This document shows positions 1,756 to 58,676 of a stretch of DNA of 64,000 nt, piece after piece; the first letter of the stretch is position 1, and every line of letters starts with the position of its first letter. The notes under the pieces were generated by a model that worked only from the letters and a program-made list of their open reading frames with translations, searched no databases and had not been told where the DNA came from. The position numbers and the translations under genes were made by a program. Origin of the DNA: Bacteroidetes bacterium MED-G17 (GTDB lineage: Bacteria; Bacteroidota; Bacteroidia; NS11-12g; UBA9320); contig NTKK01000006.1 of assembly GCA_002457675.1 (NCBI GenBank), forward strand, positions 11,742-75,741, in the 5' to 3' direction.

Positions 1756-2781
1756 ATGTCAAACGAGCACTTGCAAGCGGATAAAAATCATCTAACGCCT
1801 ATCGAGCAAGATGCGGAGAAAGTATTGCGTCCTGCGCGTTTCGAAGATTTTACGGGTCAAGATAAATTGGTGGAAAACCTCAAAGTGTTTGTAAAAGCTG
1901 CTAAACAAAGGGGTGAAGCACTAGACCATGTTTTGTTGCATGGTCCTCCAGGCTTAGGGAAAACCACTTTGTCACACATCATCAGCAATGAAATGGATAG
2001 TCAAATGAAAATCACCAGTGGACCTGTATTGGAAAAACCAGGAGATTTGGCTGGATTGCTTACTAATTTGGAGGAAGGAGATGTTTTATTTATTGATGAG
2101 ATCCATAGGATGAGCTCAGTCATAGAAGAGTATCTCTACTCAGCAATGGAAGATTATAAGATTGATATTGTACTCGATACTGGACCTGCAGCAAGAAGCG
2201 TACAAATAAGTTTAAACCCATTCACATTAATTGGTGCCACGACTAGGTCAGGTCTTTTAACGGCTCCTTTACGTGCGCGTTTTGGTATCAATTGCCGATT
2301 GGAATACTATAATGCAAAATTGATTGCCACTATCGCCAAAAGGTCAGCTCAAATATTGGATATACCGATAGACAACAATGCAGCTTCGGAAATTGCCAAA
2401 AGAAGTAGGGGAACACCCAGGATAGCAAATGCGCTCCTTCGCAGAACTAGAGACTTTGCTCAGATAAAAGGTAAAGGCATCATTACTTTGGAAATTGCAC
2501 AAATGGCACTTCGTGCATTAAATGTTGACCAAAGCGGGCTAGATGAAATGGACAACCTTATTTTACTTACAATTATTGATAAATTTAACGGTGGCCCAGT
2601 TGGTTTAAATACCATCGCGACAGCCGTTGGTGAAGATGCAGGTACGATTGAAGAAGTTTATGAACCTTTTCTTATCCAAGAGGGATTTGTCCAGAGAACA
2701 GCACGAGGAAGAGAGGCAACCACTAGGGCCTATAAACATTTGGGTAAAACAAAATCTGGGGACGCGCCGACCTTATTTTGA
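1756..2781 (+). CDS. ruvB: Holliday junction branch migration DNA helicase RuvB
   Basis: Walker A motif [10 protein letters not shown]; RuvB N-terminal segment [10 protein letters not shown]; conserved C-terminal winged-helix region; 341 aa. Confidence 0.95.
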
Positions 2782-3707
2782 AAACAGATTTACTTCAAAA
2801 AAATAGCCAAGAAGTGAAGAGCATTGCCCAGTCATTGGGCTTTGAATTTTGTGGAATTGCTAAGGCAGAAAAGTTGGTTGAAGAAGAAAGTAGATTAGAA
2901 AGCTGGCTTAATCAGAAGCATCATGCAAGCATGCAGTACATGGAAAATCACTTCGAATTAAGATTAGATCCAACCTTACTTGTTCCCGGGGCCAAAACGG
3001 TCATCTCATTAATGTATAACTATTTTCAACAAGCTCGACCTAAGAGCGAAAAGGGGTACAAAATCGCTCAATATGCTTGGGGAAAAGACTACCATAAAGT
3101 AGTCAAGAAAAAATTACAAGAATTTATAATGCAATTGAATCAGTCAATTGGGCAGGTAAATGGGCGGGTTTTTGTCGATTCTGCGCCGATTTTAGAAAGA
3201 TCATGGGCAGCTCGGTCAGGGCTTGGCTGGGTAGGTAAAAATTCAATGCTGATTAATAAAAAAAAAGGCAGTTTTTATTTTTTGGCAGAAATAATTTCAG
3301 ATTTGGAGGCATGGCCTGATATACCAGATACTGACCATTGTGGTACGTGCACGGCGTGTATAGACGCTTGTCCAACAGATGCGATTTTGCCAGAAAAAAA
3401 TATCAATAGCAACAATTGTATTTCTTATTTCACCATTGAACACAAAGACAAAATAGGGCCGCATATGTCAGGTAAAATGGATGACTGGATTTTTGGTTGT
3501 GATATTTGTCAAGATGTTTGTCCTTGGAATCGCTTTGCTCAAAAGCATCAAGAACCCAAATTTGAAGGGCCAAAAAATAACCTATCAAAGACAGATTGGG
3601 AAGAGATGACCCACGAAGTATTTAATGAAATATTTGCTGGTAGTCCATTGAAACGTGCTAAATGGGAGGGGATAAAAAGGAATATTTTGTTTAACAAAAA
3701 GGCTTAA
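2778..3707 (+). CDS. queG: tRNA epoxyqueuosine(34) reductase QueG
   Basis: Two 4Fe-4S ferredoxin motifs ([12 protein letters not shown] and CDICQDVCP) and a DUF1730-like N-terminus. Overlaps the ruvB stop by 4 nt. Confidence 0.85.
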
Positions 3708-4444
3708 AAGTTAAACATGTTGGGAAAATTTTTTGATACCATTTGTGCGGTATCTCCGGGTTTATGAATCTTATGAAAATATCGAAGCGGTAGCTGGCTG
3801 GCGTCAGAAAAAAGCTTGGATAAATCAACATTTATGTTTAACTCTTTTTTTTGGCTTAGCCCCTGGTTATTTGTCAATTTATTGGGCAATGTTAAACGTA
3901 TTTCTTGAGCTGTTTCTTGGCCAGATTTATAGCCTCCGATGTGCATTGTCACCCCTTCATTTGGACTACTAGGGCTATTACCTTCCAACTTAAAATTTAT
4001 GTAGCCTGAGTTCATTTGCCAGTACATTGGATCTATAAACTGGTCATTAAGCCCGCCGTTAATGTTTATAGTTGAATCTCTAACACCAAGATCAAAGGCC
4101 AGTGACACAAAATCGTCAAGTGGGAATGTTCCTAATTCAATTTGGGTGTTTCCTGTGGCAGGGTTTATCAGGGCATATTTATTTTCAAACCTATACGTTG
4201 TGCCATCTTCAGAAATTAACTGGAAATTATTTACATGGTAAATCAACTTAGAAGGAGTAAAAGAATCGCCATTACTGGTAAGATAAGTTTGGTTATCAAA
4301 TACAAGCTTTTCATTGTCAAAATTGTGCGAAAAGCCAATCATCAAAATTTGCTTGTATTTCTTTGGGTCTTCATCATTACACTGAATAAATGATAAAGCA
4401 GCCGGTACCAAAAAAAGTAAAAAGTAATTAAGGCGCATTCCCAA
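3704..4444 (-). CDS. hypothetical secreted protein / lipoprotein
   Basis: Signal peptide with a lipobox-like FIQC. No motif I can assign with confidence. Transcribed divergently from crtZ. Confidence 0.45.
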   Translation of the reverse strand: MGMRLNYFLLFLVPAALSFIQCNDEDPKKYKQILMIGFSHNFDNEKLVFDNQTYLTSNGDSFTPSKLIYHVNNFQLISEDGTTYRFENKYALINPATGNTQIELGTFPLDDFVSLAFDLGVRDSTININGGLNDQFIDPMYWQMNSGYINFKLEGNSPSSPNEGVTMHIGGYKSGQETAQEIRLTLPNKLTNNQGLSQKKELNINVDLSKLFSDASQLPLRYFHKIHKPGDTAQMVSKNFPNMFNF

Positions 4445-4479
4445 AGATAATCAAATGATTTAAGGAGATAAAGTGTAAT

Positions 4480-4506
4480 TTGACTTTGTTTAATTTTTAA
4501 AGTCAA
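4480..4506. promoter_or_regulatory. Perfect inverted repeat TTGACTTT-N11-AAAGTCAA in the crtZ/divergent-gene intergenic region; candidate operator
   Basis: Read directly from the sequence: 8-bp arms, 11-bp AT spacer, about 40 bp upstream of the crtZ ATG. No flanking T-run on either strand, so it is not a terminator. Confidence 0.45.
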
Positions 4507-4516
4507 AAAATGAACA

Positions 4517-4524
4517 TAAATTTG
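4517..4524 (+). promoter_or_regulatory. Candidate Bacteroidota sigma-A -7 box (TAAATTTG) for crtZ-crtB
   Basis: Exact match to the TAnnTTTG consensus, 22 nt upstream of the crtZ ATG. Confidence 0.35.
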
Positions 4525-4546: not shown

Positions 4547-4987
4547 ATGAAATTATTTTTCATCTTTGTTACGTTTTGTTTTATGGAGTTTATGGCATGG
4601 TTTACGCACAAATTCATTATGCATGGCTTTATGTGGAGATGGCATAAATCACACCACAGTGTGCACAAACAAGTTTTCGAAAAAAACGACCTATTTGCAG
4701 TAGTATTTGCCCTTGTCTCGGCGGGGCTGATAGTACTTTCAAGCGAAAAAATAATTCCATCAATATTCTTCGAAATCGGTATTGGAGTTTGTCTTTACGG
4801 GGTAGCATACTTTTTGGTTCACGATGTATTTGTTCATCAAAGAATCAAATGGCTTAGAAAGACAAATATTAAATATTTTAAAGCCATGAGAAAGGCGCAT
4901 AAAATTCACCATAAGACATTAACCAAAGATGGGGCAGAGGCGTTTGGCTTCTTATTTGTGCCCAAAAAATATTTGAGAAAGGTATGA
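4547..4987 (+). CDS. crtZ: beta-carotene 3-hydroxylase (fatty acid hydroxylase superfamily)
   Basis: Histidine boxes HKSHHS and HKIHH in a 146-aa membrane protein (WRWHKSHH), typical of CrtZ. Immediately upstream of phytoene synthase. Confidence 0.8.
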   Translation: MKLFFIFVTFCFMEFMAWFTHKFIMHGFMWRWHKSHHSVHKQVFEKNDLFAVVFALVSAGLIVLSSEKIIPSIFFEIGIGVCLYGVAYFLVHDVFVHQRIKWLRKTNIKYFKAMRKAHKIHHKTLTKDGAEAFGFLFVPKKYLRKV

Positions 4988-5829
4988 AAAATGCAATTAA
5001 ATTATACAATGAAGTCTCTCTCGAATCGAGCAAGCTTACAACAGAAAGATACAGTACCTCTTTTTCAGTTGGCATTCGTTTAATTTCTGGTGAATTAAGG
5101 TGGGCTATTTATGCTTTGTATGGTATGGTTCGTTATGCAGACGAAATTGTAGATACCTTTCACAATCAAGATAAAGGTCTTTTGTTAAATGATTTTGAAG
5201 CGCAGACCTATGAAGCAATTGAGCGAAAATTTTCAACCAACCCAATTTTACATGCTTACCAAATGGCACATCATCAATTTTCTATTGATCAAGCGCTAGT
5301 AAAGTCCTTTTTTGAGAGCATGAAGATGGACTTAGAGCAAAAAGTACACGATAAAGATTCATATGATACGTACGTATATGGAAGTGCCGAAGTAGTAGGG
5401 TTGATGTGTTTGCATGTTTTTACCGAGGGGAATAAAAAATTGTTTAATGACTTACTGCCCAACGCTAGAGCCCTTGGTTCGGCCTTCCAAAAAGTAAATT
5501 TTTTAAGAGACCTTAAGAGCGATTTAGAAGAAAGAGGAAGACTGTATTTCCCAAATGTGAACTTCACCAATTTCTCTGATGAAGACAAACAACAAATTAT
5601 TCAAGAAGTAAAAGAAGAGTTCAAGCATGCGTTAAGCGGGATTAAAAAATTGCCTTTATCCTGCAGATTTGGCGTTTATACCGCGTATAAATATTACCTC
5701 AAACTTTTGGTAAAAATCGACAGTAAGCACAAAGAAGAGCTTTTGGAAAAGAGAATTAGAGTGAATAATGCTCAAAAAGTATGGGTGCTTGCCAAAAGTT
5801 TTTCAAGGTACCAGCTAAATCTACTTTAA
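4984..5829 (+). CDS. crtB: phytoene synthase (squalene/phytoene synthase family)
   Basis: Isoprenoid synthase motifs YGMVRYADEIVD and the second Asp-rich region. 281 aa. Start overlaps the crtZ stop by 4 nt. Confidence 0.85.
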   Translation: MKNAIKLYNEVSLESSKLTTERYSTSFSVGIRLISGELRWAIYALYGMVRYADEIVDTFHNQDKGLLLNDFEAQTYEAIERKFSTNPILHAYQMAHHQFSIDQALVKSFFESMKMDLEQKVHDKDSYDTYVYGSAEVVGLMCLHVFTEGNKKLFNDLLPNARALGSAFQKVNFLRDLKSDLEERGRLYFPNVNFTNFSDEDKQQIIQEVKEEFKHALSGIKKLPLSCRFGVYTAYKYYLKLLVKIDSKHKEELLEKRIRVNNAQKVWVLAKSFSRYQLNLL

Positions 5830-8272: not shown

Positions 8273-9328
8273 ATGAGGAAGTTTCTGTTTGTCATTTTTT
8301 GCAGCTTGTTTGCTTTTTGTGATAAGGGCAACAACAAACAAATTAAACTTGAATCGTATGCCAAATATGGTGATTTTTTTATCCTAGCAGATGATCGATT
8401 AATTCAGCATCAAATGAAAGAAACATTTCTGAACGTTTTTTCTGCTGAGGAAGAAAATCTTTTGCCTCCAAAACCTAGAAAATTTTTACCAAGATTTTTG
8501 CCTTTAGATCAAATGGGCAACTTTACTCGACGTTATTTCAATTCGATTATTCTTCTCGATAACAAGTCCAAAGATTATTTTCTTTCACTATTTGATAGGC
8601 AAACAGTTCAAAATCTTTTACAAAAAATAAATGAAAAAAATGCTTTTGGTTTTGTGATAAACAACTTGTGGGCAAAGCCGCAAAAAACACTTATTATCTA
8701 TGCAGAAAATCAAAATTCACTTCTAGAAAAAATAGTTAAAAACCAAGAAAAACTTATCCAATATGTTGAGCAAGCGGAGCTTTCTGTAGGAGAAAATAAA
8801 ATGTTTCCACTCGGGAAGGCGAGAAATTCGAGCTTTATAAAAATGAAGAAGTCGAGAAAATTTGCCTTACCACTACATCCTTATTATCGATTGGCTTTAA
8901 ATAAAAAAGAGATGCTTTGGTATAGAAGAAATTCTAAAAAAATGGATTATGCAATTTGTATTTATGAAGAGCCATTCGCGTCGGAAAGTCAATTTGAATT
9001 GAACTACATTAAAAAAATGCGAAATCAAAAAACCAAAAAATTTTTGAAGGGCCAATTGGACAATACATATGTGGAGATTGATCCCGAGATTGATTGCAGC
9101 TTTACCAAAGAAAATTTTAGTGGAATGCCTTGTTACACCCTAAAAGGTTGGTGGAGTATGAATAATGACTTTATGGCTGGTCCATTTGTTACCCGAACAA
9201 TTTTTGATCAAAAAAATAAACGTGTAATTACCATAGATGGACATTTATACGGACCAGAGGTAGCTAATAAAATTAATCACCTAAGAGAGTTAGAGGTTTA
9301 TATACATACTTTTGAACCAAGTTTATGA
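8273..9328 (+). CDS. DUF4837-like lipoprotein (hypothetical)
   Basis: Lipoprotein signal (LFAFC); about 350 aa, Bacteroidota-specific-looking. ATG directly abuts the upstream stop. Family assigned from memory only. Confidence 0.45.
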   Translation: MRKFLFVIFCSLFAFCDKGNNKQIKLESYAKYGDFFILADDRLIQHQMKETFLNVFSAEEENLLPPKPRKFLPRFLPLDQMGNFTRRYFNSIILLDNKSKDYFLSLFDRQTVQNLLQKINEKNAFGFVINNLWAKPQKTLIIYAENQNSLLEKIVKNQEKLIQYVEQAELSVGENKMFPLGKARNSSFIKMKKSRKFALPLHPYYRLALNKKEMLWYRRNSKKMDYAICIYEEPFASESQFELNYIKKMRNQKTKKFLKGQLDNTYVEIDPEIDCSFTKENFSGMPCYTLKGWWSMNNDFMAGPFVTRTIFDQKNKRVITIDGHLYGPEVANKINHLRELEVYIHTFEPSL

Positions 9329-9891
9329 TTCGCTTGGCAATACTCGCTTCGGGCTCCGGAACCAATGCACAGGCAATAATTGAATATTTTGATGGTCACG
9401 CATCTATTGAAATTTCGGGCGTATATACAAACAATCCTGAGGCGGGTGTAATTAAAAAGTGTCAACAATTAAACATGGATTGTTTTGTTTTTTCAAATGC
9501 TGATTTAAAAAATGATACATTACTTAAATTACTTATTTCTTCACATGTTGAAGGAATTATTCTTGCTGGATTTTTGAGAAAAATTACACCAAATATTCTT
9601 GAAACGTATTCAAATAAAATTATGAATATTCATCCAAGTCTTTTGCCAAAATATGGTGGTAAGGGCATGTACGGAGCGCACGTCCACCATTCAGTGTTGG
9701 CTAATAAGGAAAAAGAAACAGGTATAACCATACATCTTGTTAATGAAAATTATGATGAAGGAGATTACCTATTTCAAAGACGGGTAAAACTTGGTAAGGA
9801 TGAAAGCATAGAATCTATTATAAAAAAGATTTCTAGTTTGGAACATACCTACTATCCCCAAGTCATAGAACGTTTTTTTTTAATTAAATAA
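9325..9891 (+). CDS. purN: phosphoribosylglycinamide formyltransferase
   Basis: MIRLAILASGSGTNAQAI N-terminus; folate-binding HPSLLP...G motif; 188 aa. Confidence 0.9.
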   Translation: MIRLAILASGSGTNAQAIIEYFDGHASIEISGVYTNNPEAGVIKKCQQLNMDCFVFSNADLKNDTLLKLLISSHVEGIILAGFLRKITPNILETYSNKIMNIHPSLLPKYGGKGMYGAHVHHSVLANKEKETGITIHLVNENYDEGDYLFQRRVKLGKDESIESIIKKISSLEHTYYPQVIERFFLIK

Positions 9892-10237
9892 AATAGCTTT
9901 GTTTGCCAAATTTGATTACCAGTAAACAATAAACCAGCACTCGGTATTTTCTCTTGTTTGAGAGACCTAATTTTTCCAAGACTTTCCAAATATGCTCGTC
10001 TAATATAGGATTATCTCCTAAACCCAGTTTATTTCCAAGAAATTCTTTTTTTATTTTAGCTATTTCGCCTTTTTGCACGGATATAATTTCTGTTTCTCGC
10101 TTGTATATAGCGCTTCCCAAAGATTTTGTTATTGCTTCCAATAATTCATCTGAAATATTTAGTCCCAATTTATCTCTCTGCCTTTTGTATATAGCTAACT
10201 TTTGCATGAATCTATTTGTCATAGATACAAAGAACAA
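9884..10237 (-). CDS. hypothetical small protein (117 aa; an internal Met start is possible)
   Basis: Intact ORF, convergent with purN. No recognisable motif. Preceded by a TGTCA/TGACA repeat array. Confidence 0.4.
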   Translation of the reverse strand: MFFVSMTNRFMQKLAIYKRQRDKLGLNISDELLEAITKSLGSAIYKRETEIISVQKGEIAKIKKEFLGNKLGLGDNPILDEHIWKVLEKLGLSNKRKYRVLVYCLLVIKFGKQSYFI

Positions 10238-10266
10238 GACTAGTTTTTTATAGAAATTGTCTCTAG

Positions 10267-10307
10267 TGTCATGGAAATGTCATTTTTTTACTGACATAAA
10301 ATTGTCA
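10267..10307. promoter_or_regulatory. Array of four TGTCA/TGACA pentamers upstream of the 9884..10237 ORF
   Basis: Pentamer starts at 10267, 10278, 10292 and 10303: a direct pair TGTCA-N6-TGTCA, then a palindrome TGACA-N6-TGTCA. The paired spacings are 11 bp. Confidence 0.4.
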
Positions 10308-10376
10308 CAATATGAGCACAGATTTTTAACACTCAAAAATCAAATTCAAAAATTTAAGGGCTAATGTGCTACTAAA

Positions 10377-12086
10377 TTACTGCAATAGATTTCTTTTATA
10401 GAATGCGTAAGGGCCGCGTTCATAAAGAAATTCAAGTTTAGGATATTGCGACATTTTATGTTGGTCTTTTTTAAGGATGCTTATGTATACTGGTTTATCA
10501 ATTTTACCTGTCAAAAGTCTTTGCCAAATCTCTGAAGAAAAAGCTCCGCGTTTCTCCAAAGGTAAATTACTGTAAGAATTACAATTGTATTTCTGTAAAA
10601 CGTCTTTGCGAATCTGCCATATTTCATCATCCTCACGATAAGATTTATTTCGCGCATAAAAGTTAGGAATATAGGTGGCAAAAGAATGGCTGATAAAATA
10701 GGCATCTTCATTTTGTCGAGCTTTATGAAAAGCCACAAGTTCCTTTTGGCTGTGCGCTTCAATTTTTGGTGCAAAACTGACCAACAACATGGGACAAAAT
10801 ATAGCTACCCAAAAGAACAAGTATTGAAATTTGTGCGCGTATAAAACAAATAAAACTCCGATAAAAAATATCCCTACAATTCCAAATTCCATACCAGTCC
10901 AAGGTCCTTCTAATTGGAGCGCTTCAGTTGTTATTGGGTTGTTGATGAAGTTCGCTATAGTATTTTTAAAAGTTGGATTGTTTCCTACAAGGGACAGTAA
11001 AGAAAGCGCGGCAACGATTATCAAAGAAATTACCCATAAAAGCGAAATTTCTAATTTATTTAATTTAATATTTTTCAATCGGATTGCGGCGAAGTAAGTT
11101 ATGGGGAGATAGGTCATGGAGCTGTAATGCACTATCTTGGTTTTTACCAAACTAAACAAGATCAAAACCACCCAAAAGAATATACGTAGTAAGTTTTCCA
11201 ACAGATATGCTTTATTTCCCTTATCACCCACCTTTTTTGTAAGTCCTCGAAAAGCCAATATAGAGGCAGGAAACATACCAACCAACAAAACCAATGGATG
11301 GTAGAAAAATGGTTGGGCATGGTTGGCAACATTTTTTGAAAAAAGATCTTTTTGTATAGAAATAAAATTTCCTAAAACCTTCGATGGAGATCCGTCATTA
11401 CCCAATAGGTACCACCAAAAAATAACTGAAAGTATAGGCAAAGCTAGGAGCACCAAATGGCTTAAGGCAAAATATCTACGAAAGTTGTTCTGAATTAAAA
11501 TATAAAGCCCCACTAAGCCAATAACTAAAATGGCAACGGGTCCTTTGGTTAGAAAGGCCAAAGCCAGTGAAATGCCCATCAAAAAGAAATAAACATGTTT
11601 CTTGGATGAAGAAATGGCCTGAGAAAGAAAGTATAAAGCAAAAAATATAAATAGGTTGAACCAAGGATCAATAATGCCTGACCTGAAGTATAACTGAGAG
11701 GTGAAACTACCCAAATAAACTAAAACCCACTGCCAAGCCATCTTACTATTGTGGTGTTTTTTACCAAGAAAAAACACAAAGTTGATGGTGGCAATACCTG
11801 CTAAAGCATTCGGTAATCTTGCGGCCCACTCATTTATGCCAAAAATTTTCATGCTTATAGATTGCATCCAAAAAAATAAAGGAGGTTTATCTGAAAAAGG
11901 TAAATAGTCAACGCTCGTTCTCATCCAATTATGGCTAAGCAACATTTCCTTTGCTACAGTAGCAAAGTTTACTTCATCCCAATCAAAAAGGTGAACACGT
12001 CCTAGGAAAAAACCAAAAAATAAAGCTGCAGAAATACTGAGAAAAAAGTGCGGAAATCGCTTAATTACTTTTCTCATGTCGCACAA
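10377..12086 (-). CDS. ArnT/PMT-like membrane glycosyltransferase (GT83/GT39 family)
   Basis: N-terminal region (...DEVNFATVAKEML...FSDKPPLFFWMQSISMKIFGINEWAARLPNALAGI) matches the conserved ArnT / dolichyl-phosphate-mannose mannosyltransferase signature. Polytopic, 569 aa. Confidence 0.8.
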   Translation of the reverse strand: MCDMRKVIKRFPHFFLSISAALFFGFFLGRVHLFDWDEVNFATVAKEMLLSHNWMRTSVDYLPFSDKPPLFFWMQSISMKIFGINEWAARLPNALAGIATINFVFFLGKKHHNSKMAWQWVLVYLGSFTSQLYFRSGIIDPWFNLFIFFALYFLSQAISSSKKHVYFFLMGISLALAFLTKGPVAILVIGLVGLYILIQNNFRRYFALSHLVLLALPILSVIFWWYLLGNDGSPSKVLGNFISIQKDLFSKNVANHAQPFFYHPLVLLVGMFPASILAFRGLTKKVGDKGNKAYLLENLLRIFFWVVLILFSLVKTKIVHYSSMTYLPITYFAAIRLKNIKLNKLEISLLWVISLIIVAALSLLSLVGNNPTFKNTIANFINNPITTEALQLEGPWTGMEFGIVGIFFIGVLFVLYAHKFQYLFFWVAIFCPMLLVSFAPKIEAHSQKELVAFHKARQNEDAYFISHSFATYIPNFYARNKSYREDDEIWQIRKDVLQKYNCNSYSNLPLEKRGAFSSEIWQRLLTGKIDKPVYISILKKDQHKMSQYPKLEFLYERGPYAFYKRNLLQ

Positions 12087-50617: not shown

Positions 50618-51880
50618 ATGGTTGATGTATTGTTGGGACTTCAGTGGGGTGATGAAGGAAAAGGGAAAATTGCAGACTACATAACTCCAGATTATGATAT
50701 CGTTGCAAGATTTCAAGGTGGGCCAAATGCAGGACATACCATTGCTTTTGGAGAAAAAAAATATATTCTAAATACAATCCCATCTGGAATATTTAGAGAG
50801 GGTTGCTTAAATCTAATCGGAAATGGAGTAGTGGTTGATCCTGTAAGACTTCTTGAAGAAATCAAGCGCACCGAAATATCAGGAGTTTCTGTAAAAGAAA
50901 AACTAATATTTAGTTACCGGGCAAATCTTATTCTGCCCACCCATAAATTACTGGACGAAGCTTCCGAAAATGCTAAAGGCAAGAGTAAAATAGGAAGCAC
51001 ATTAAGAGGAATAGGTCCTACTTATAGAGATAAAACAGGACGCTCTGGATTAAAGATGTATCATCTTTTTAGTAATGACTTTAAGCAAGTTTATAAAAAA
51101 GTGGTGAATAGACATTTAGCACTTCTTGAGCATTACAAATTTACCGATTTTGACCTTGTTAAGGAGGAAACCGCATTCTTTGAGGCATGTGAGATACTTA
51201 AACAATATCAATTTGCAAACATTGAATACCTTGTTCATAATGCAATAAGGGAAGGTAAGAAAATATTGGCAGAAGGTGCACAAGGTACGTTGTTAGATGT
51301 AGATTTTGGGTCTTATCCATATGTAACTTCTAGTAACACAATTTCCGGTGCTGTCTGCACAGGATTAGGCGTGGCGCCAAAACACATTAATAAAGTTAAG
51401 GGTATTTTCAAAGCATATTGTACAAGGGTAGGTTCAGGGCCATTTCCTACAGAACTGAATGATGAAATGGGCGAAAGGCTCCGAATGGTAGGGAATGAAT
51501 TTGGAGCTACAACAGGTAGACCTAGACGATGTGGATGGCTAGACCTAGTGGCTTTACAATATGCAGTAATGATTAACGGTGTAGACGAGCTTTATATGAT
51601 GAAAACTGATGTTTTGTCGGGAATTGACAAATTACATGTTGGAACGGCATATGATTTGGGCAATAAAATTGTTGATCATTTCCATTCAACTTCTCTAGAA
51701 ACGAATAAAGTAATATACTCAGAGATGGAAGGTTGGAATGAAGATATTACCCAATTAGTAGCTTTTGAAAAGCTGCCTAAAAGCTTGCACAACTACATTG
51801 ATTTTTTAGAAGAAAAAACAGAAACACAAGTAAAATTGGTGTCTGTTGGTCCGGATAGAAGTCAAACAATAGTAAGGTAG
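50618..51880 (+). CDS. purA: adenylosuccinate synthase
   Basis: MVDVLLGLQWGDEGKGK; GPNAGH; TTGRPRRCGWLD. Confidence 0.95.
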   Translation: MVDVLLGLQWGDEGKGKIADYITPDYDIVARFQGGPNAGHTIAFGEKKYILNTIPSGIFREGCLNLIGNGVVVDPVRLLEEIKRTEISGVSVKEKLIFSYRANLILPTHKLLDEASENAKGKSKIGSTLRGIGPTYRDKTGRSGLKMYHLFSNDFKQVYKKVVNRHLALLEHYKFTDFDLVKEETAFFEACEILKQYQFANIEYLVHNAIREGKKILAEGAQGTLLDVDFGSYPYVTSSNTISGAVCTGLGVAPKHINKVKGIFKAYCTRVGSGPFPTELNDEMGERLRMVGNEFGATTGRPRRCGWLDLVALQYAVMINGVDELYMMKTDVLSGIDKLHVGTAYDLGNKIVDHFHSTSLETNKVIYSEMEGWNEDITQLVAFEKLPKSLHNYIDFLEEKTETQVKLVSVGPDRSQTIVR

Positions 51881-51885
51881 TTGAT

Positions 51886-52461
51886 TTGATTCATTTGTAT
51901 GAAAAAACAGAAGGTCAGTTGGTTCATAAAAAACCACTAAAATTGGCTGGACGTAAGCAAGGGATACTATACCAACACAGAATTAAGGTAAAAAAAATTA
52001 ATCAACATTCGTTTTACTTAAAAGTAAATAAGCTCTTTCCAAAAACAAGTAAAGTTGTATTATGCCCGCTACCATCAACTGTTAGTGAGCAATTATTTTT
52101 TGAACTAGACGAATTATATGGTTATTCTTATCATGGAAATATTTATTTGATGTTGGTATTTTATTTCTTAGATAAAGGCAGTCAAAATAAAAACATTTCT
52201 TCAAGTAGAGGTGATATGCATTTTTCAAATCTAAAAATCGAAGGTAAATTTATAGATGATCGTTGGGAGGGAAGCTTAAATTATATTGACCCTTCACCAG
52301 TATACTACCAAACTTTTGACCAAGAGGTTGCAGCTTTTTACCAAAAAGTTCTTTCCAAAAGAATAAAAAAATCAAATAAAAATTATTTCCTCAGTGGGTT
52401 TCCAAATTTTCGAAATATTTCCAATAAAAAAATATTAAGTAAGAGTAAATCATACAAATAA
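51886..52461 (+). CDS. hypothetical protein (doubtful; TTG start; antisense-overlaps the next gene's 3' end by 79 nt)
   Basis: Open frame only. Lys-rich, no motif. Positioned 6 nt after purA. Confidence 0.25.
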   Translation: MIHLYEKTEGQLVHKKPLKLAGRKQGILYQHRIKVKKINQHSFYLKVNKLFPKTSKVVLCPLPSTVSEQLFFELDELYGYSYHGNIYLMLVFYFLDKGSQNKNISSSRGDMHFSNLKIEGKFIDDRWEGSLNYIDPSPVYYQTFDQEVAAFYQKVLSKRIKKSNKNYFLSGFPNFRNISNKKILSKSKSYK

Positions 52462-53075
52462 AATGCGTCATCAAGAGGTATTGAGCCCATTCTAATATTC
52501 ATATTTTCAAGATCATTGTACCAAACTACAGGAAGTTTTGTAAGGACCCCATTAACAAGAAAAAAAGGAATTAAACTAAAAAAATATCCGTAGTAGAAAT
52601 GGGGAAGCTTGATTTTTTTGAATAAAACCATTGTCGATACGGTTAGAACAAGTTGAAGGATAGCAGTAACGTTAGTGTATAATTGGTCTTGAAAATAAGT
52701 ATAATTATATAATGCAATTAAGAAAAATGCTAGATGCAATGAAAAGGTAATATGCTTATTGAGCCCATTTGGGAAATAAAACTTACAAACTTCATAAATG
52801 AATATACAAGCTAAAGGAATGACAAAAAAGAATAAAATTTCTTCAATCGGAAGCAGCCAGATTCTTATACCCAAAAAATAGTTGTTATTAAAGCCCCAAA
52901 TACCCTCCTCTGTAAACCAAATATCCCAAAGGATAAAAATGATGGCTGTAATTAAGGTAGACAATAAAAAATCTTTCCACTTTTTGTCCAACTTTACCCG
53001 AGAATCATACCATTTTCTGAGTGGATAATATAAAGTGAATATTAATAATCCTAGATAGACGAATTGATTCATCAA
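52383..53075 (-). CDS. lycopene cyclase domain-containing protein (CrtYcd-type carotenoid cyclase)
   Basis: Two repeats of the cyclase-domain signature: WDIWFTEEGIWGFNNNYFLGIRIWLLPIEEILFFFVIPLACIF and GSIPLDDAFYLYDLLLLN. About 7 TM helices, 230 aa. Start overlaps the upstream ECF sigma stop (ATGA). Confidence 0.7.
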   Translation of the reverse strand: MMNQFVYLGLLIFTLYYPLRKWYDSRVKLDKKWKDFLLSTLITAIIFILWDIWFTEEGIWGFNNNYFLGIRIWLLPIEEILFFFVIPLACIFIYEVCKFYFPNGLNKHITFSLHLAFFLIALYNYTYFQDQLYTNVTAILQLVLTVSTMVLFKKIKLPHFYYGYFFSLIPFFLVNGVLTKLPVVWYNDLENMNIRMGSIPLDDAFYLYDLLLLNIFLLEIFRKFGNPLRK

Positions 53076-53602
53076 TTTTTTTCCTTTAACCCATAATCAT
53101 GGGCATAGGAACGAAGATGCTTTCGTAATTTTCTTTTTGCAACAAAAATTCGAGTTTTGACTGTACCAATAGGAATATTTAGTATATCCGCTATCTCGTG
53201 GTATTTGAATCCCTGCCTGTTATAGTTAAAAGTTACTTGTAAATCTTCTGGCAGTTGTTCTATGGCATATTCCATATCTCTTCGAAGAAAATTATTGGTA
53301 CCTTTATTTTCGGTATAATAACCTTCAATGTCCATATGATAAGTACTGTCTGTTGTGTCGATGAAGGTATTTCGCTTTACTATTCTTCTATAATTATTAA
53401 TGAAACTATTTTTCATAATTGTGTATAGCCAACCCTTTAAATTGGTGCCCTCTTTAAATTTACTCTTATACGTAAACGCTTTTAACATAGTTTCCTGAAC
53501 CAAATCTTTTGCATCTTCAAAATCTTTAGTTAACTGAAGGGCATAATTCATTAGCGGTCTTTCTTGCTGCTGAACTTGTTTATCAAAATCTACGGATGTC
53601 AT
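53072..53602 (-). CDS. RNA polymerase ECF-type sigma-70 factor
   Basis: Region 2 (LMNYALQLTKDFEDAKDLVQETMLKAF...WLYTIMKNSFIN) and region 4 (HEIADILNIPIGTVKTRIFVAKRKL); 176 aa. Confidence 0.85.
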   Translation of the reverse strand: MTSVDFDKQVQQQERPLMNYALQLTKDFEDAKDLVQETMLKAFTYKSKFKEGTNLKGWLYTIMKNSFINNYRRIVKRNTFIDTTDSTYHMDIEGYYTENKGTNNFLRRDMEYAIEQLPEDLQVTFNYNRQGFKYHEIADILNIPIGTVKTRIFVAKRKLRKHLRSYAHDYGLKEKN

Positions 53603-53733
53603 TTTATTTGATTCAAATCTATGAACAAATATTTTCTTTACCTATATTTTGTTTAAACTTTTTTTTATTTAGTTAAACAAAAATTTAATGGATAAAAAAG
53701 GAATCACGCATAATTATTATTATATATCACTGA

Positions 53734-53751
53734 TTTACAATTAGTTGTAAA
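53734..53751. promoter_or_regulatory. Perfect palindrome TTTACAA-ttag-TTGTAAA in the 258-bp ECF-sigma/PTPS intergenic region
   Basis: Read directly. Flanked by two TGTTTAAAC copies (53650 and 53803) and TGTTTA-like direct repeats at about 10-bp spacing (53782-53811). Confidence 0.4.
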
Positions 53752-53860
53752 CTTAAAATGAAAATGATGAGGGATAAGATTTGTTTATCTTGTTATATTT
53801 ACTGTTTAAACAAAGACAAATAAACTAAAACTTTTCGGCTTAGGATTGTTTGCTATATAC

Positions 53861-54271
53861 GTGATAGTTACAGTTTGTAGAAAAGCGCACTTTAATGCGG
53901 CGCATCGTTTACATGTTTCTTCTTGGGATGAAGAACAGAACAAAGACTTCTTTGGTCTCTGTAACAACGAAAATTATCATGGACACAATTACCAATTGAT
54001 TGTAAAAGTAAAGGGGAAGGTGGACGAAACCTCTGGTTATCTTATTGATATGAAAGAATTGAGTAAAATTATCAAAGAAGAAGTAGAAAACCCTTTTGAC
54101 CACAAAAATCTAAATTTAGACACTGAGGAATTTAAACATCTTAACCCAACCGCAGAAAATATTGCGGGTGTGATCTACCGGAAAATAAAAACAAGACTAA
54201 ACCCAGACTTCCAACTAAGTATAACACTTTATGAAACAGAACGAAACTTTATTGAATATCATGGAGAATGA
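53861..54271 (+). CDS. 6-pyruvoyl-tetrahydropterin synthase family protein (PTPS/QueD-like)
   Basis: Start set at the GTG, giving (M)[16 protein letters not shown]..., which matches the PTPS N-terminus. Later GHNY..L segment is also PTPS-like. Confidence 0.75.
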
Positions 54272-54923
54272 TGAATTGATGCAAGACGATAGTCATTTCT
54301 CAACCTCCCTAGAAACACCTCTTCGACCAGATGCATTTAAACTCACAGAAGAGCAAAAAATTGAAAAAATTGAACATCATTTTAGAGAGATTTTGACCAC
54401 TTTGGGCATGGATTTGAATGATGATAGCCTAAATAAAACCCCCTACAGAGTGGCTAAAATGTATGTGAAAGAAATATTCTCAGGTCTCGATCCCAACAAT
54501 AAACCAAAAGTTTCTCTTTTTGAGAATAAATTTGGTTACAACCAAATGTTGGTTGAAAAAGATATAAATGTTAACTCTCAGTGTGAGCACCATTTGGTTC
54601 CAATATTTGGCAAAGCACATGTTGCCTATATTGCAAATGGGGAAGTAATTGGCTTATCAAAAATCAATAGAATTGTTGACTATTACTGCAAAAGACCTCA
54701 AGTTCAGGAAAGACTTACCAGACAAATTGCAGAGGAATTGAAGCAGGTTTTAAAAACAGAGGATGTTGCTGTTGTACTAGACGCGAAGCATATGTGTGTT
54801 AGTTCAAGGGGTATCAAAGATGTAAATAGCAGTACAATTACAGCGGCAATTTCTGGTCAGTTTCAAAATGAAGCGACCCGTTTGGAATTTTTAAGGTATA
54901 TAGGAATGAATTCTTCCTTTTAA
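54231..54923 (+). CDS. folE: GTP cyclohydrolase I
   Basis: ...[17 protein letters not shown]...RPQVQERLT... An alternative in-frame start at 54261 (MENDEL...) gives only a 10-nt overlap with the PTPS gene. Confidence 0.9.
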
Positions 54924-57212: not shown

Positions 57213-58676
57213 ATGAATAAAGTAGGTATAGACGATATGGCAGTTTATGTACCAAAAATATTTTTGGACATTGGTGAATTGGCAAAAAATCGCGGAATCG
57301 AAAAAGAAAAACTTCAGAGGGGATTGGGCTTAGAAAAAATGGCATTACCTGATACCTACGAAGACGCAGCAACCATGGGTGCAAATGCCGTGCTTAGTTT
57401 GATGCAAAAAAACAGCTTAAAGCCTCAAGATTTAGGCAGAATATATTTGGGGACTGAAAGTGCGCTAGATGGAGCAAAGCCAACATCCACTTATATTTTA
57501 CACATGCTAATTGATTTTTATGCACCTGAATTTGGCGAAGACTGTTTCAATCAGTGCGATGTTGTAGATATGACTTTTGCTTGTATTGGGGGTGTAGACG
57601 CATTGCACAATACTTTGGACTGGGTGGGTAGTGAAAGTGGAAAGGTTGGTATTGTAGTGACCGCGGATTTTGCAAAATACGACTTGCATTCTTCAGGAGA
57701 ATATACCCAAGGAGCTGGCGCTATAGCGTTGCTTATTAAACAAAATCCAAGATTAATTTCTATAGACGAAACGTGGGGTATCGCTACAAAACCAGTTCAT
57801 GATTTTTTCAAACCGAGGAGAGTCAAAAGTAAATTTAAACTGTTTAAAGAGTCATTAGAACTTGTAGGAATCGAAAGCCAAAAGATTGATGAAATATGGA
57901 ATTCTTTAGATAACTTAAGTAAACAAAAATATCTTGGTGTAGATGAAGACAACATAGCAATTTTTAAGGAAACACCTGTTTTTGATGGACAGTATTCTAA
58001 TGACTGTTATAAAAATAGAATTAACGAAGCGTATAAAAATTTCCAAAAGAAAAACCCAAAATTTTCTCTAGAAAATTGGGATTTTTTGGCATTTCACTTG
58101 CCATATGCTTTTCATGGAAAGAGAATTTTTACAGAAATTTTCATTCAATATTTATTAGGTACAAACCAGATGATACCCTTTTTAAAGGAAAACCATCTCC
58201 CGGTGGATGTGCATGATTATGATAGCCCCGAATTTGTAAAGAGTATTTATAAATCAAAGGGGTATAAAGCTTTCACAGATGAAAAAATGAGGTATGCATC
58301 AAAGGCCTCCTCAGAAGTTGGCAATATGTATGCTTGTTCTATTTTCCTTTCACTGGCTAGCATAATTGTTTGTAGTGAAGAAAGTGGTATGGATTTACAA
58401 GGAAAAAAAATAGGCTTTATCGCTTATGGAAGTGGCTCAAAGTCAAAAGTTTTTTCTGGGACCATTGGTAAGAACTGGCGACAAGTATCTAGAAATATTC
58501 AGCTTTTTGAGCAATTGCAAAAAAGAAAAGGCCTTTCTTACGAAACTTATGAAGCCTTACATAGAGAACAATTCAATACAGTGGTAAATAAACCGGTCAA
58601 TTGTTTTGTCAGAAAAGAAATTTTTACGGAGAAAGGTGTTAGGGAAGGCATGCGTGTTTATGGATTTGAGGAATGA
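57213..58676 (+). CDS. mvaS: hydroxymethylglutaryl-CoA synthase (mevalonate pathway)
   Basis: VGIDDMAVYVPK N-terminus; thiolase-fold active-site context (...MTFACIGGV...); 487 aa. Confidence 0.8.
   Translation: MNKVGIDDMAVYVPKIFLDIGELAKNRGIEKEKLQRGLGLEKMALPDTYEDAATMGANAVLSLMQKNSLKPQDLGRIYLGTESALDGAKPTSTYILHMLIDFYAPEFGEDCFNQCDVVDMTFACIGGVDALHNTLDWVGSESGKVGIVVTADFAKYDLHSSGEYTQGAGAIALLIKQNPRLISIDETWGIATKPVHDFFKPRRVKSKFKLFKESLELVGIESQKIDEIWNSLDNLSKQKYLGVDEDNIAIFKETPVFDGQYSNDCYKNRINEAYKNFQKKNPKFSLENWDFLAFHLPYAFHGKRIFTEIFIQYLLGTNQMIPFLKENHLPVDVHDYDSPEFVKSIYKSKGYKAFTDEKMRYASKASSEVGNMYACSIFLSLASIIVCSEESGMDLQGKKIGFIAYGSGSKSKVFSGTIGKNWRQVSRNIQLFEQLQKRKGLSYETYEALHREQFNTVVNKPVNCFVRKEIFTEKGVREGMRVYGFEE

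Follow-up and report, generated by a model that had tools for sequence, protein, structure and literature searches.

An ECF sigma factor gene coupled to a lycopene cyclase gene in a marine member of the Bacteroidota is probably part of a B12-photoreceptor circuit for carotenoid synthesis

In Streptomyces coelicolor and S. griseus, the regulator LitR in complex with adenosyl-B12 keeps the litS promoter repressed in the dark; litS is induced by light, and the sigma factor LitS then reads the promoters of the carotenoid (crt) genes. An anti-sigma factor for LitS is not mentioned in that report (PMC11519972). In Myxococcus xanthus, the CarQ-CarR-CarS circuit turns on carotenoid synthesis in the light, and there an extracytoplasmic function (ECF) sigma factor is translationally coupled to a polytopic membrane protein, CarR, which is a six-helix anti-sigma factor of the DUF1109 type (PMC8156234). 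Here we analyse an ECF sigma factor gene that is coupled to a lycopene cyclase gene in a 64-kb stretch of DNA (the window) from the marine metagenome-assembled genome MED-G17 of the Bacteroidota. The original prediction had named CarQ/CarR as the nearest parallel of this pair, but the LitR/LitS system of Streptomyces appears to be closer, the likeness lying in circuit logic and gene context. We consider it moderately likely that the sigma factor stands in a LitR/LitS-like cascade under transcriptional control, probably by light, and that the cyclase is an enzyme co-transcribed with it. This module is conserved across the Bacteroidota; it ties the sigma factor to genes for carotenoids, pterins and photolyase, and probably also to a light sensor that uses vitamin B12. 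Regulatory statements throughout are inferred from sequence, among them the binding of a conserved repeat by CarH, light as the signal and the choice of promoters that the sigma factor reads. The argument starts from the following features.

53602..53072, minus strand: ECF sigma factor gene, 176 aa, sigma regions 2 and 4 only (Pfam, TIGR02937)
53072..52383, minus strand: gene for a fused two-domain CrtYcd-type lycopene cyclase, 229 aa, polytopic membrane protein (PF18916, TIGR03462)
53070..53075, minus strand: sigma-cyclase junction TTGATG(A) (sequence reading, public gene calls)
53621..53614, minus strand: TAGATTTG, match to the housekeeping -7 box TAnnTTTG, 11 nt before the sigma ATG (sequence; promoter role predicted)
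53846..54271, plus strand: 6-pyruvoyl-tetrahydropterin synthase (PTPS)/QueD-family gene, divergent from the sigma gene (PF01242)
54231..54923, plus strand: GTP cyclohydrolase I gene (folE), overlapping the PTPS gene (PF01227, public annotation)
53650..53679, no strand assigned: inverted repeat A, TGTTTAA-N16-TTAAACA, perfect core, predicted operator, -78 to -46 from the sigma ATG
53782..53812, no strand assigned: inverted repeat B, TGTTTAT-N17-TTAAACA, one mismatch, predicted PTPS-folE operator, 33 nt before the PTPS open reading frame (ORF)

Both genes of the pair are real and lie on the minus strand where the original prediction had placed them, and profile searches bear out the identities it had assigned, with matches to the two sigma-70 regions and to both lycopene cyclase models. 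The sigma protein scored 50.8 bits with Pfam Sigma70_r2 (PF04542), 39.8 bits with Sigma70_r4_2 (PF08281) and 83.3 bits with the NCBIfam superfamily model TIGR02937 (sigma70-ECF, cut-off 42.9), and with regions 2 and 4 only and a length within the range of about 170-200 aa it is a regular ECF sigma factor. None of the equivalog or subfamily models of NCBIfam matched it at cut-off. Orthologues with 59-70% identity make up more than 100 protein clusters, drawn from Flavobacteriales-like genomes and from other Bacteroidia, and the sigma factor of the carotenoid cluster of Mongoliibacter ruber is 49% identical. Judged by these identities (49-70% across orders), the window protein is a member of a tightly conserved ECF family of the Bacteroidota. 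We found no functional study of this family in Bacteroidota in the literature, and the main text of Casas-Pastor 2021 does not mention carotenoid-linked ECF groups. An ECF sigma gene is usually accompanied by a co-transcribed cognate anti-sigma gene. Here, a Pfam search of every window ORF of at least 100 aa returned no zf-HC2, RskA, FecR or DUF1109 domain, no second sigma factor and no MerR protein, so that the earlier statement that no anti-sigma factor is visible holds at the domain level. When the ORFs within 2.5 kb of the sigma gene were clustered over about 110 related loci, no anti-sigma-like family was conserved beside it either.

The cyclase matched Pfam Lycopene_cyc (PF18916, 112.5 bits, cut-off 27) and TIGR03462 (89.7 bits, cut-off 39.4), in each case over two stretches. 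Its tandem lycopene-cyclase (CarR_dom) domains, at residues about 7-94 and 131-221, lie in one polypeptide, which is the defining trait of the CrtYcd type; there are about seven hydrophobic segments, loops of ~20 residues or fewer and no soluble domain. In an alignment of 19 family sequences, 18 columns are invariant, and the window protein retains every one of them. They include the PxE(E/D) motif of each domain, LPIEE (residues 74-78) and IPLDD (residues 198-202), i.e. P75-x-E77-E78 and P199-x-D-D202, which we take to be catalytic. Beyond the species group its closest relatives are 40-48% identical, the Algoriphagus yeomjeoni protein 40%. Hence, the window protein is most likely a working fused CrtYcd lycopene beta-cyclase, as far as conserved residues and domains can tell. 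A crtZ gene in the same genome bears on the presumed conversion of lycopene to beta-carotene, or gamma-carotene, because the substrate of CrtZ needs beta-rings. A fusion-type CrtYcd lycopene beta-cyclase is known from Algoriphagus sp. KK10202C (Tao et al. 2006, as cited in PMC7064467). The clusters of Algoriphagus and Echinicola contain the same single-polypeptide two-domain cyclase family together with the same sigma family and a B12-binding MerR protein (B12-MerR; PMC8683446). There, however, carH-sigma-crtI-crtB-crtYcd-ispH-crtW/Z form one block, whereas MED-G17 retains only sigma-crtYcd.

On the minus strand the junction of the two genes reads GAA AAA AAT TGA TGA ATC, in which the first TGA (53074..53072) is the sigma stop codon. 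The cyclase ATG (53072..53070) shares 1 nt with this stop (TGATG), and in the public gene calls the two genes likewise have one base in common. Direct reading thus contradicts the 4-nt ATGA overlap that had been claimed; a 4-nt overlap arises only if the cyclase starts at TTG 53075, which would give a protein of 230 aa. A genuine 4-nt ATGA overlap does exist in the window, at the crtZ/crtB junction (4984-4987). The relatives L011/L012 and L026 show a like style of overlap between sigma and cyclase. Sigma factor and cyclase are made from one transcript, and since the cyclase is coupled to the sigma gene the ring-closing step would come under the same signal as the sigma factor.

Genomes were scanned with an alignment of the sigma family, one genome per species, and the best 80 of more than 586 matches were kept. 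Metagenome contigs were scanned with a B12-MerR alignment, which gave 80 loci, 61 of them with at least 1.3 kb of downstream sequence. It is important to note that the 80 sigma-centred and the 80 MerR-centred loci are the best matches among many more and not random samples; ORF calling in them was mechanical, and the labels come from phmmer matches to a small set of seed proteins. In 57 of the 80 genomes, from at least three orders, the sigma gene has one crt gene or more within 10 kb; crtI was found in 44, a cyclase gene in 37, crtZ in 33 and crtB in 31, while a rough estimate for a random gene is ~3%. By these counts the association of the sigma gene with crt genes is far beyond chance, and the pairing in the window is no oddity. 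A B12-MerR gene is present in 19 of the 80 sigma-centred loci and a divergent PTPS gene in 13, 11 of which also have folE, as in the window; the divergent PTPS-folE/sigma layout is also present in L009, L011 and L013.

Three layouts recur in this collection. Cytophagales have carH-sigma-crtI-crtB-(crtY)-ispH-crtW/Z; in Mongoliibacter ruber the order is crtZ, B12-binding MerR, sigma, crtI, crtB, crtYcd, ispH and a crtW-like gene. Sphingobacteriales have murB-sigma with a convergent crtI and with crtZ, crtB and the cyclase gene nearby. In the Flavobacteriales-like genomes nearest to the window, folE-PTPS is divergent from sigma, with or without a cyclase gene or crtB after sigma. Over both sets (110 non-redundant loci), the gene that follows sigma is crtI in 38 cases, a cyclase gene in 7, crtB in 2, folE in 1 and another gene in 25, and no gene lies within 300 nt in the other 37. 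As to the sigma-cyclase pair that the original prediction had singled out, the linkage to crt genes stands, but the cyclase as the immediate neighbour is confined to those 7 loci. The gap between sigma and crtI is 10 nt or less, or the genes overlap, in 24 of the 38 loci, so tight coupling to the next gene is a habit of the sigma operon and not the sign of an anti-sigma factor. The coupling of sigma and cyclase in the window is therefore most likely the remnant of an operon rather than evidence for a new kind of anti-sigma factor.

The families that recur within 2.5 kb of the sigma gene are the crt proteins, MurB, TetR, a PfkB kinase, a cytochrome-b5-like protein, PTPS/FolE, CarH and two signal-peptide families. 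MurB, TetR, PfkB, the cytochrome-b5-like protein and the two signal-peptide proteins have no counterpart in the window. Some of these neighbours deserve mention in their own right. A ~175-aa signal-peptide protein without a Pfam family is encoded directly before the cyclase gene in most of 12 carotenoid clusters, mostly of Sphingobacteriales (L029 12483-13013, L032, L035, L040, L041, L043, L046, L052, L054, L055, L079 and L017), and follows crtB where crtB was detected; in L017 it follows crtB at 11387-11914 and no cyclase gene was detected. The ~78-aa cytochrome-b5-like protein (PF00173) is encoded just after the cyclase or sigma gene in Sphingobacteriales (L034 11539-11775 and 11 other loci; further examples are L064 11346-11579 and L093 11330-11563). 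A conserved ~280-aa protein is encoded about 90-100 nt after sigma in seven genomes of the Flavobacteriales-like type (L018, L019, L021-L024 and L027), where crt genes are missing at this place; owing to its N-terminal signal peptide, an anti-sigma role is unlikely.

An alignment of the regions upstream of the sigma orthologues revealed an inverted repeat with the consensus TTGTTTAAy-N14-rTTAAACAA and the core TGTTTAA-N16-TTAAACA, for which a match was counted as strict if no more than one of the 14 core bases deviated. Two copies, A and B, lie in the window between the sigma gene and the divergent PTPS-folE pair. The offset of repeat A recurs in L069, L072 and L086, and equivalents of repeat B are found 60-86 nt before PTPS in L018, L019, L021 and L023. 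From base composition, about 0.006 perfect-core matches are expected per 64 kb; a looser pattern gives ~1.5 matches per shuffle. Sigma loci totalling about 1.3 Mb contain 76 strict matches, of which at least 70 are located upstream of sigma. In L016, two sigma paralogues in tandem (8975-9544 and 9950-10519, 64% and 66% identical to the window sigma) are each preceded, at equal distance, by their own copy of the inverted repeat.

The consensus of the housekeeping sigma factor of Bacteroidetes is TTTG/TAnnTTTG (PMC7366714), and the -7 box upstream of the window sigma gene is conserved at the equivalent position in Cytophagales orthologues. In this order repeat 1 stands immediately before TTTG (-33), with the TAnnTTTG box 19 nt further on. 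Repeat 2 brackets the -7 box: the left arm falls within the promoter spacer, and the right arm follows directly on the box, ~10 nt before the ATG; the -7 box sits at one of two adjacent positions inside the repeat in 20 of 116 distinct sites. Such a layout suits an operator, and repeat 2 cannot be a promoter for sigma. That the repeat is the sigma factor's own promoter (-35 TGTTTAAC, -10 GTTA) was considered and rejected, as the proximal copy ends ~10 nt or less before the ATG and encloses the housekeeping -7 box. The AAC-to-GTT spacing in the repeat, 14 nt, is also below that of the ECF promoters known to us. An RNA hairpin was rejected as well: the core is invariant and the first arm position beyond it shows no covariation (T-G 21, T-A 19, C-A 17, C-G 13), which speaks for a DNA site bound by protein and against an RNA stem. 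An Rfam scan of 51500-54500 gave nothing relevant, and a scan for sigma-70-type promoters, whose consensus is inapplicable to Bacteroidota, found sites no more frequently than in shuffled sequence. Taken together, the sigma gene appears to be read by the primary sigma factor, with the repeats placed as operators.

The repeat keeps company with the B12-MerR gene. Wx9EH and ExH motifs are present in the B12-MerR proteins, whose N-terminal DNA-binding head hardly varies, and in 31 of the 61 loci with sufficient downstream sequence the next gene is sigma, in the same direction. Among the genome loci, 19 of 20 sigma promoters that adjoin a B12-MerR gene have the repeat, as do 11 of 15 with PTPS, but only 6 of 41 Sphingobacteriales-type sigma loci without a nearby B12-MerR. 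In the MerR-centred set, 48 of 71 repeat matches stand before sigma, 11 before the MerR gene and 1 before a crtZ-MerR operon. No sigma gene was detected in 4 of the 11 loci with the repeat before the MerR gene, one of which has only 106 nt after that gene; several of the others are at contig ends just past the MerR gene. Apparent operons link further functions to the pair: L123 (104-4619) reads carH - sigma - folE - SDR (short-chain dehydrogenase) - photolyase and L131 (6995-9387) carH - sigma - folE, while in L011/L012, which have an overlapping sigma-cyclase pair as in the window, the B12-MerR and photolyase genes are 3-5 kb away. These operons, along with the PTPS-folE pair of the window, suggest that pterin/folate synthesis belongs to the same regulon as the sigma factor. 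Most likely it is CarH that binds the repeat, although this leading inference is an extrapolation. The TAAACA in each half-site agrees with the TnnACA core that CarH DNA-binding domains read, two repeats offer four half-sites to match a tetramer or two dimers, and the sites overlap promoter elements and in some cases lie upstream of carH.

From these observations a mechanism can be proposed. The sigma family would lack a partner anti-sigma factor and be controlled through its own transcription, from a housekeeping-type promoter (-7 box TAnnTTTG) that is flanked or overlapped by the putative operator TGTTTAA-N16-TTAAACA. The likeliest protein to bind this operator would be an adenosyl-B12-dependent MerR photoreceptor of the CarH/LitR type, which would repress the sigma gene in the dark and release it in the light, as Streptomyces LitR does at litS. 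The ancestral arrangement was probably an operon sigma-crtI-crtB-crtY just after carH. In MED-G17 the cluster would have become scattered, so that crtYcd alone stays behind sigma, crtZ-crtB lie 47 kb off, and crtI and carH are outside the window. The same predicted operator also precedes the divergent PTPS-folE pair. The sigma factor would then switch on further, unlinked genes.

The likeness to LitR/LitS lies in the pairing, in Bacteroidota relatives, of a B12-binding MerR photoreceptor gene with a neighbouring ECF sigma gene close to carotenoid genes, and in the predicted control of sigma transcription by a repressor at the sigma promoter. The systems differ not only in phylum. The Bacteroidota sigma gene is usually co-transcribed with crtI or crtYcd, whereas Streptomyces litSAB is a separate operon, and carH and sigma point in the same direction in Bacteroidota but are divergent in Streptomyces. 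The LitS site GCATCCR-N15-CVGAAD of Streptomyces is unrelated to the predicted operator and probably to the target promoter of the Bacteroidota sigma factor. The name 'LitAB' (Klassen 2010) was discarded as a link between lit genes and cyclases; it denotes Dietzia C50 cyclases and not Streptomyces litSAB. With CarQ-CarR the locus shares the translational coupling of an ECF sigma factor to a polytopic membrane protein. However, CarR has no enzyme role, whereas the window protein is an enzyme of the lycopene-cyclase-domain type that shows no match to DUF1109, the family of the six-transmembrane anti-sigma partner, at E<=0.01. Moreover, CarQ is autoregulated from an ECF-type promoter, whereas the Bacteroidota sigma gene has a housekeeping-type -7 box and palindromic operators.

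The scattered crt genes of the window and a third copy of the repeat are found at the following positions.

3688..3717, no strand assigned: third repeat copy TGTTTAACAAAAAGGCTTAAAAGTTAAACA, perfect core TGTTTAA-N16-TTAAACA, where queG and an MbnP-like gene converge at their 3' ends
4479..4507, no strand assigned: palindrome TTTGACTTT-N11-AAAGTCAAA before crtZ-crtB (sequence)
4547..4987, plus strand: crtZ (beta-carotene hydroxylase; phmmer E=4.5e-38 to Mongoliibacter CrtZ, which has PF04116)
4984..5829, plus strand: crtB (phytoene synthase), ATGA overlap with crtZ (PF00494, 153 bits)

The original prediction was right that crtZ-crtB are genuine, that they lie 47 kb from sigma, and that crtI is absent from the window; neither crtI nor a B12-MerR or photolyase gene was found among window ORFs of at least 100 aa. 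Pfam returned nothing at E<=0.001 for the window CrtZ protein itself. The palindrome before crtZ, which is followed by a TAAATTTG -7 box at 4517-4524, is unlike the sigma-promoter repeat in sequence, and of the latter only a 2-mismatch N15 variant occurs before crtZ-crtB. A similar palindrome, TGACT-N13-AGTCA, precedes crtZ in Pedobacter with a divergent TetR gene beside it (palindromes upstream of crtZ: L030, L032, L035, L036, L039 and L041). TetR was therefore considered as the crtZ regulator, being located beside crtZ in 19 Sphingobacteriales loci, and was dropped because the window has no TetR gene. The MbnP-like gene is divergent from crtZ, with the palindrome in their common intergenic region. 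An HMG-CoA synthase gene (57213-58676, plus strand) of the mevalonate pathway, which supplies isoprenoid precursors for carotenoids, lies 3.6 kb from sigma.

Several observations weigh against a light-controlled LitR/LitS-like cascade. No carH or litR gene was found in the 64-kb window. In the CarH operators of Thermus, Bacillus and Myxococcales, three to five direct repeats that carry a TnnACA core follow one another in tandem, with a period of 11 bp (PMC9304148). The Bacteroidota half-sites contain TAAACA but are inverted, with cores 23 bp apart and repeat pairs 44-45 or 64-65 bp apart, and at least three tandem 11-bp direct repeats of nnnnTnnACAn overlapping the promoter are not found there. 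Before sigma, the window has a repeat of the distal type only, the copy that brackets the -7 box in Cytophagales being degenerate here. The third perfect repeat overlaps the convergent stop codons of queG (2778-3707) and the MbnP-like gene (3704-4444), ~830 bp from crtZ, i.e. at an unrelated position where no promoter is expected. An ECF-type motif common to the sigma promoter and unlinked crt upstream regions was not found in 86 regions and in the sigma-to-next-gene gaps; apart from terminators and TAnnTTTG boxes, the search returned only stretches conserved within a lineage, and housekeeping-type boxes of this kind stand before some crt genes. In four Pedobacter genomes (L064, L071, L073 and L093) an intrinsic terminator (GC-rich hairpin and T-run) directly follows sigma and the cyclase gene has its own TAnnTTTG box. 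L077 likewise has a terminator after sigma and a crtI gene with its own TAnnTTTG box, and a strong terminator follows sigma in L066 also. In the Pedobacter loci and in L077, sigma and the next crt gene are thus separate transcription units, unlike in the window, and given such separate crt promoters the sigma factor may not be needed for crt transcription. Finally, in the clade nearest to the window the most constant neighbour of sigma is PTPS-folE and not the crt genes.

Some of these points lend weight to an alternative that we regard as unlikely yet worth serious attention, namely that the sigma factor is linked to carotenoids but the repeat is bound by another regulator or by none, the signal being oxidative or envelope stress and the control being exerted by an unlinked soluble anti-sigma factor or by other post-translational means. 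In its favour are the lack of carH in the window, a repeat architecture unlike that of known CarH operators, and the Sphingobacteriales sigma gene, which stays by crt genes although the repeat is mostly absent and no B12-MerR is nearby, a TetR gene standing beside crtZ instead. The literature on Echinicola, too, labels the sigma factor of the crt cluster as stress-responsive rpoE next to merR, as an annotation without analysis (PMC8683446). On the other hand, the repeat tracks the adjacency of the B12-MerR gene and is found before such genes as well, sigma has loci in common with photolyase, folE and carH, and no alternative regulator or anti-sigma candidate is conserved beside it.

An adjacency without regulatory meaning, in which a general-purpose ECF gene by chance ended up next to a stray cyclase gene once the crt cluster had fallen apart, is improbable. 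In its favour, the crt genes of the window are scattered, and several close relatives (L009, L013, L016 and L018-L024) keep PTPS-folE only, with no crt gene within 7-10 kb of sigma. Yet the association with crt genes persists in otherwise differing neighbourhoods, and sigma is the first gene of sigma-crtI-crtB(-crtY) operons whose reading frames overlap or nearly abut.

It is very improbable that the cyclase doubles as an anti-sigma factor or sensor, sequestering the coupled sigma factor at the membrane like CarR and perhaps releasing it upon light, singlet oxygen or lycopene: translational coupling, the want of any other visible or conserved anti-sigma factor, the recurrence of overlapping or closely spaced sigma-cyclase pairs (L011/L012, L025 and L026) and the precedent of CarR as a polytopic anti-sigma factor in carotenogenesis (PMC8156234) speak for it, but crtI is coupled as tightly and far more often, the Pedobacter terminator parts sigma from cyclase, a cyclase gene without a nearby sigma gene exists (L002), the cyclase (~40-48%) is less conserved than the sigma factor (59-70%) in a pattern unexpected for an obligate binding pair, no DUF1109 or other anti-sigma domain was matched (E<=0.01) besides the lycopene-cyclase models, no loop longer than ~20 residues is there to hold a sigma factor, and the residues invariant in the enzyme family are intact. 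Similarly, we would hardly expect the cyclase to tether newly made sigma factor at the membrane where crtYcd overlaps sigma (MED-G17, L011/L012 and L026) and to release it when substrate or photo-oxidative damage alters the enzyme; if true, a biosynthetic enzyme would serve as an anti-sigma factor or feedback sensor. Of the two readings offered in the original prediction, a light- or stress-induced pigment circuit is the one that comparative genomics supports: sigma lies in or near carotenoid clusters across Cytophagales, Sphingobacteriales and Flavobacteriales-like genomes, often with a B12-MerR directly upstream and in some loci in an apparent operon with folE and photolyase. The cyclase as a CarR-like sensor or anti-sigma factor finds no support. 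A 191-aa ORF after purA (51886-52461, plus strand), annotated publicly as a gene but with no family match, shares 79 nt, in antiparallel orientation, with the cyclase gene at the 3' end of the latter. As an anti-sigma candidate it was rejected, with no Pfam/NCBIfam match, no homologue near sigma elsewhere and no hydrophobic stretch obvious by eye.

Carotenoids protect marine and freshwater Bacteroidota that are not phototrophic against damage by light, and they also feed into phototrophy based on retinal. To our knowledge, the switching-on of pigment synthesis in this phylum is essentially unstudied. In Chryseobacterium, whose pigmentation is induced by light, no known regulator was found (PMC7064467). 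The sigma factor of the window is probably a newly described, uncharacterised case of a circuit that joins a B12 photoreceptor to an ECF sigma factor. Together, the B12 photoreceptor gene, the predicted operator TGTTTAA-N16-TTAAACA and the conserved ECF sigma factor without an anti-sigma factor constitute a candidate phylum-wide circuit amenable to testing, with carotenoid, pterin/folate and photolyase genes among its predicted outputs. Should CarH indeed bind the palindrome, the range of known CarH DNA arrangements would be wider. Such a compact sensor-sigma pair could serve Bacteroidota genetics as a light switch, as LitR/LitS does in Streptomyces.

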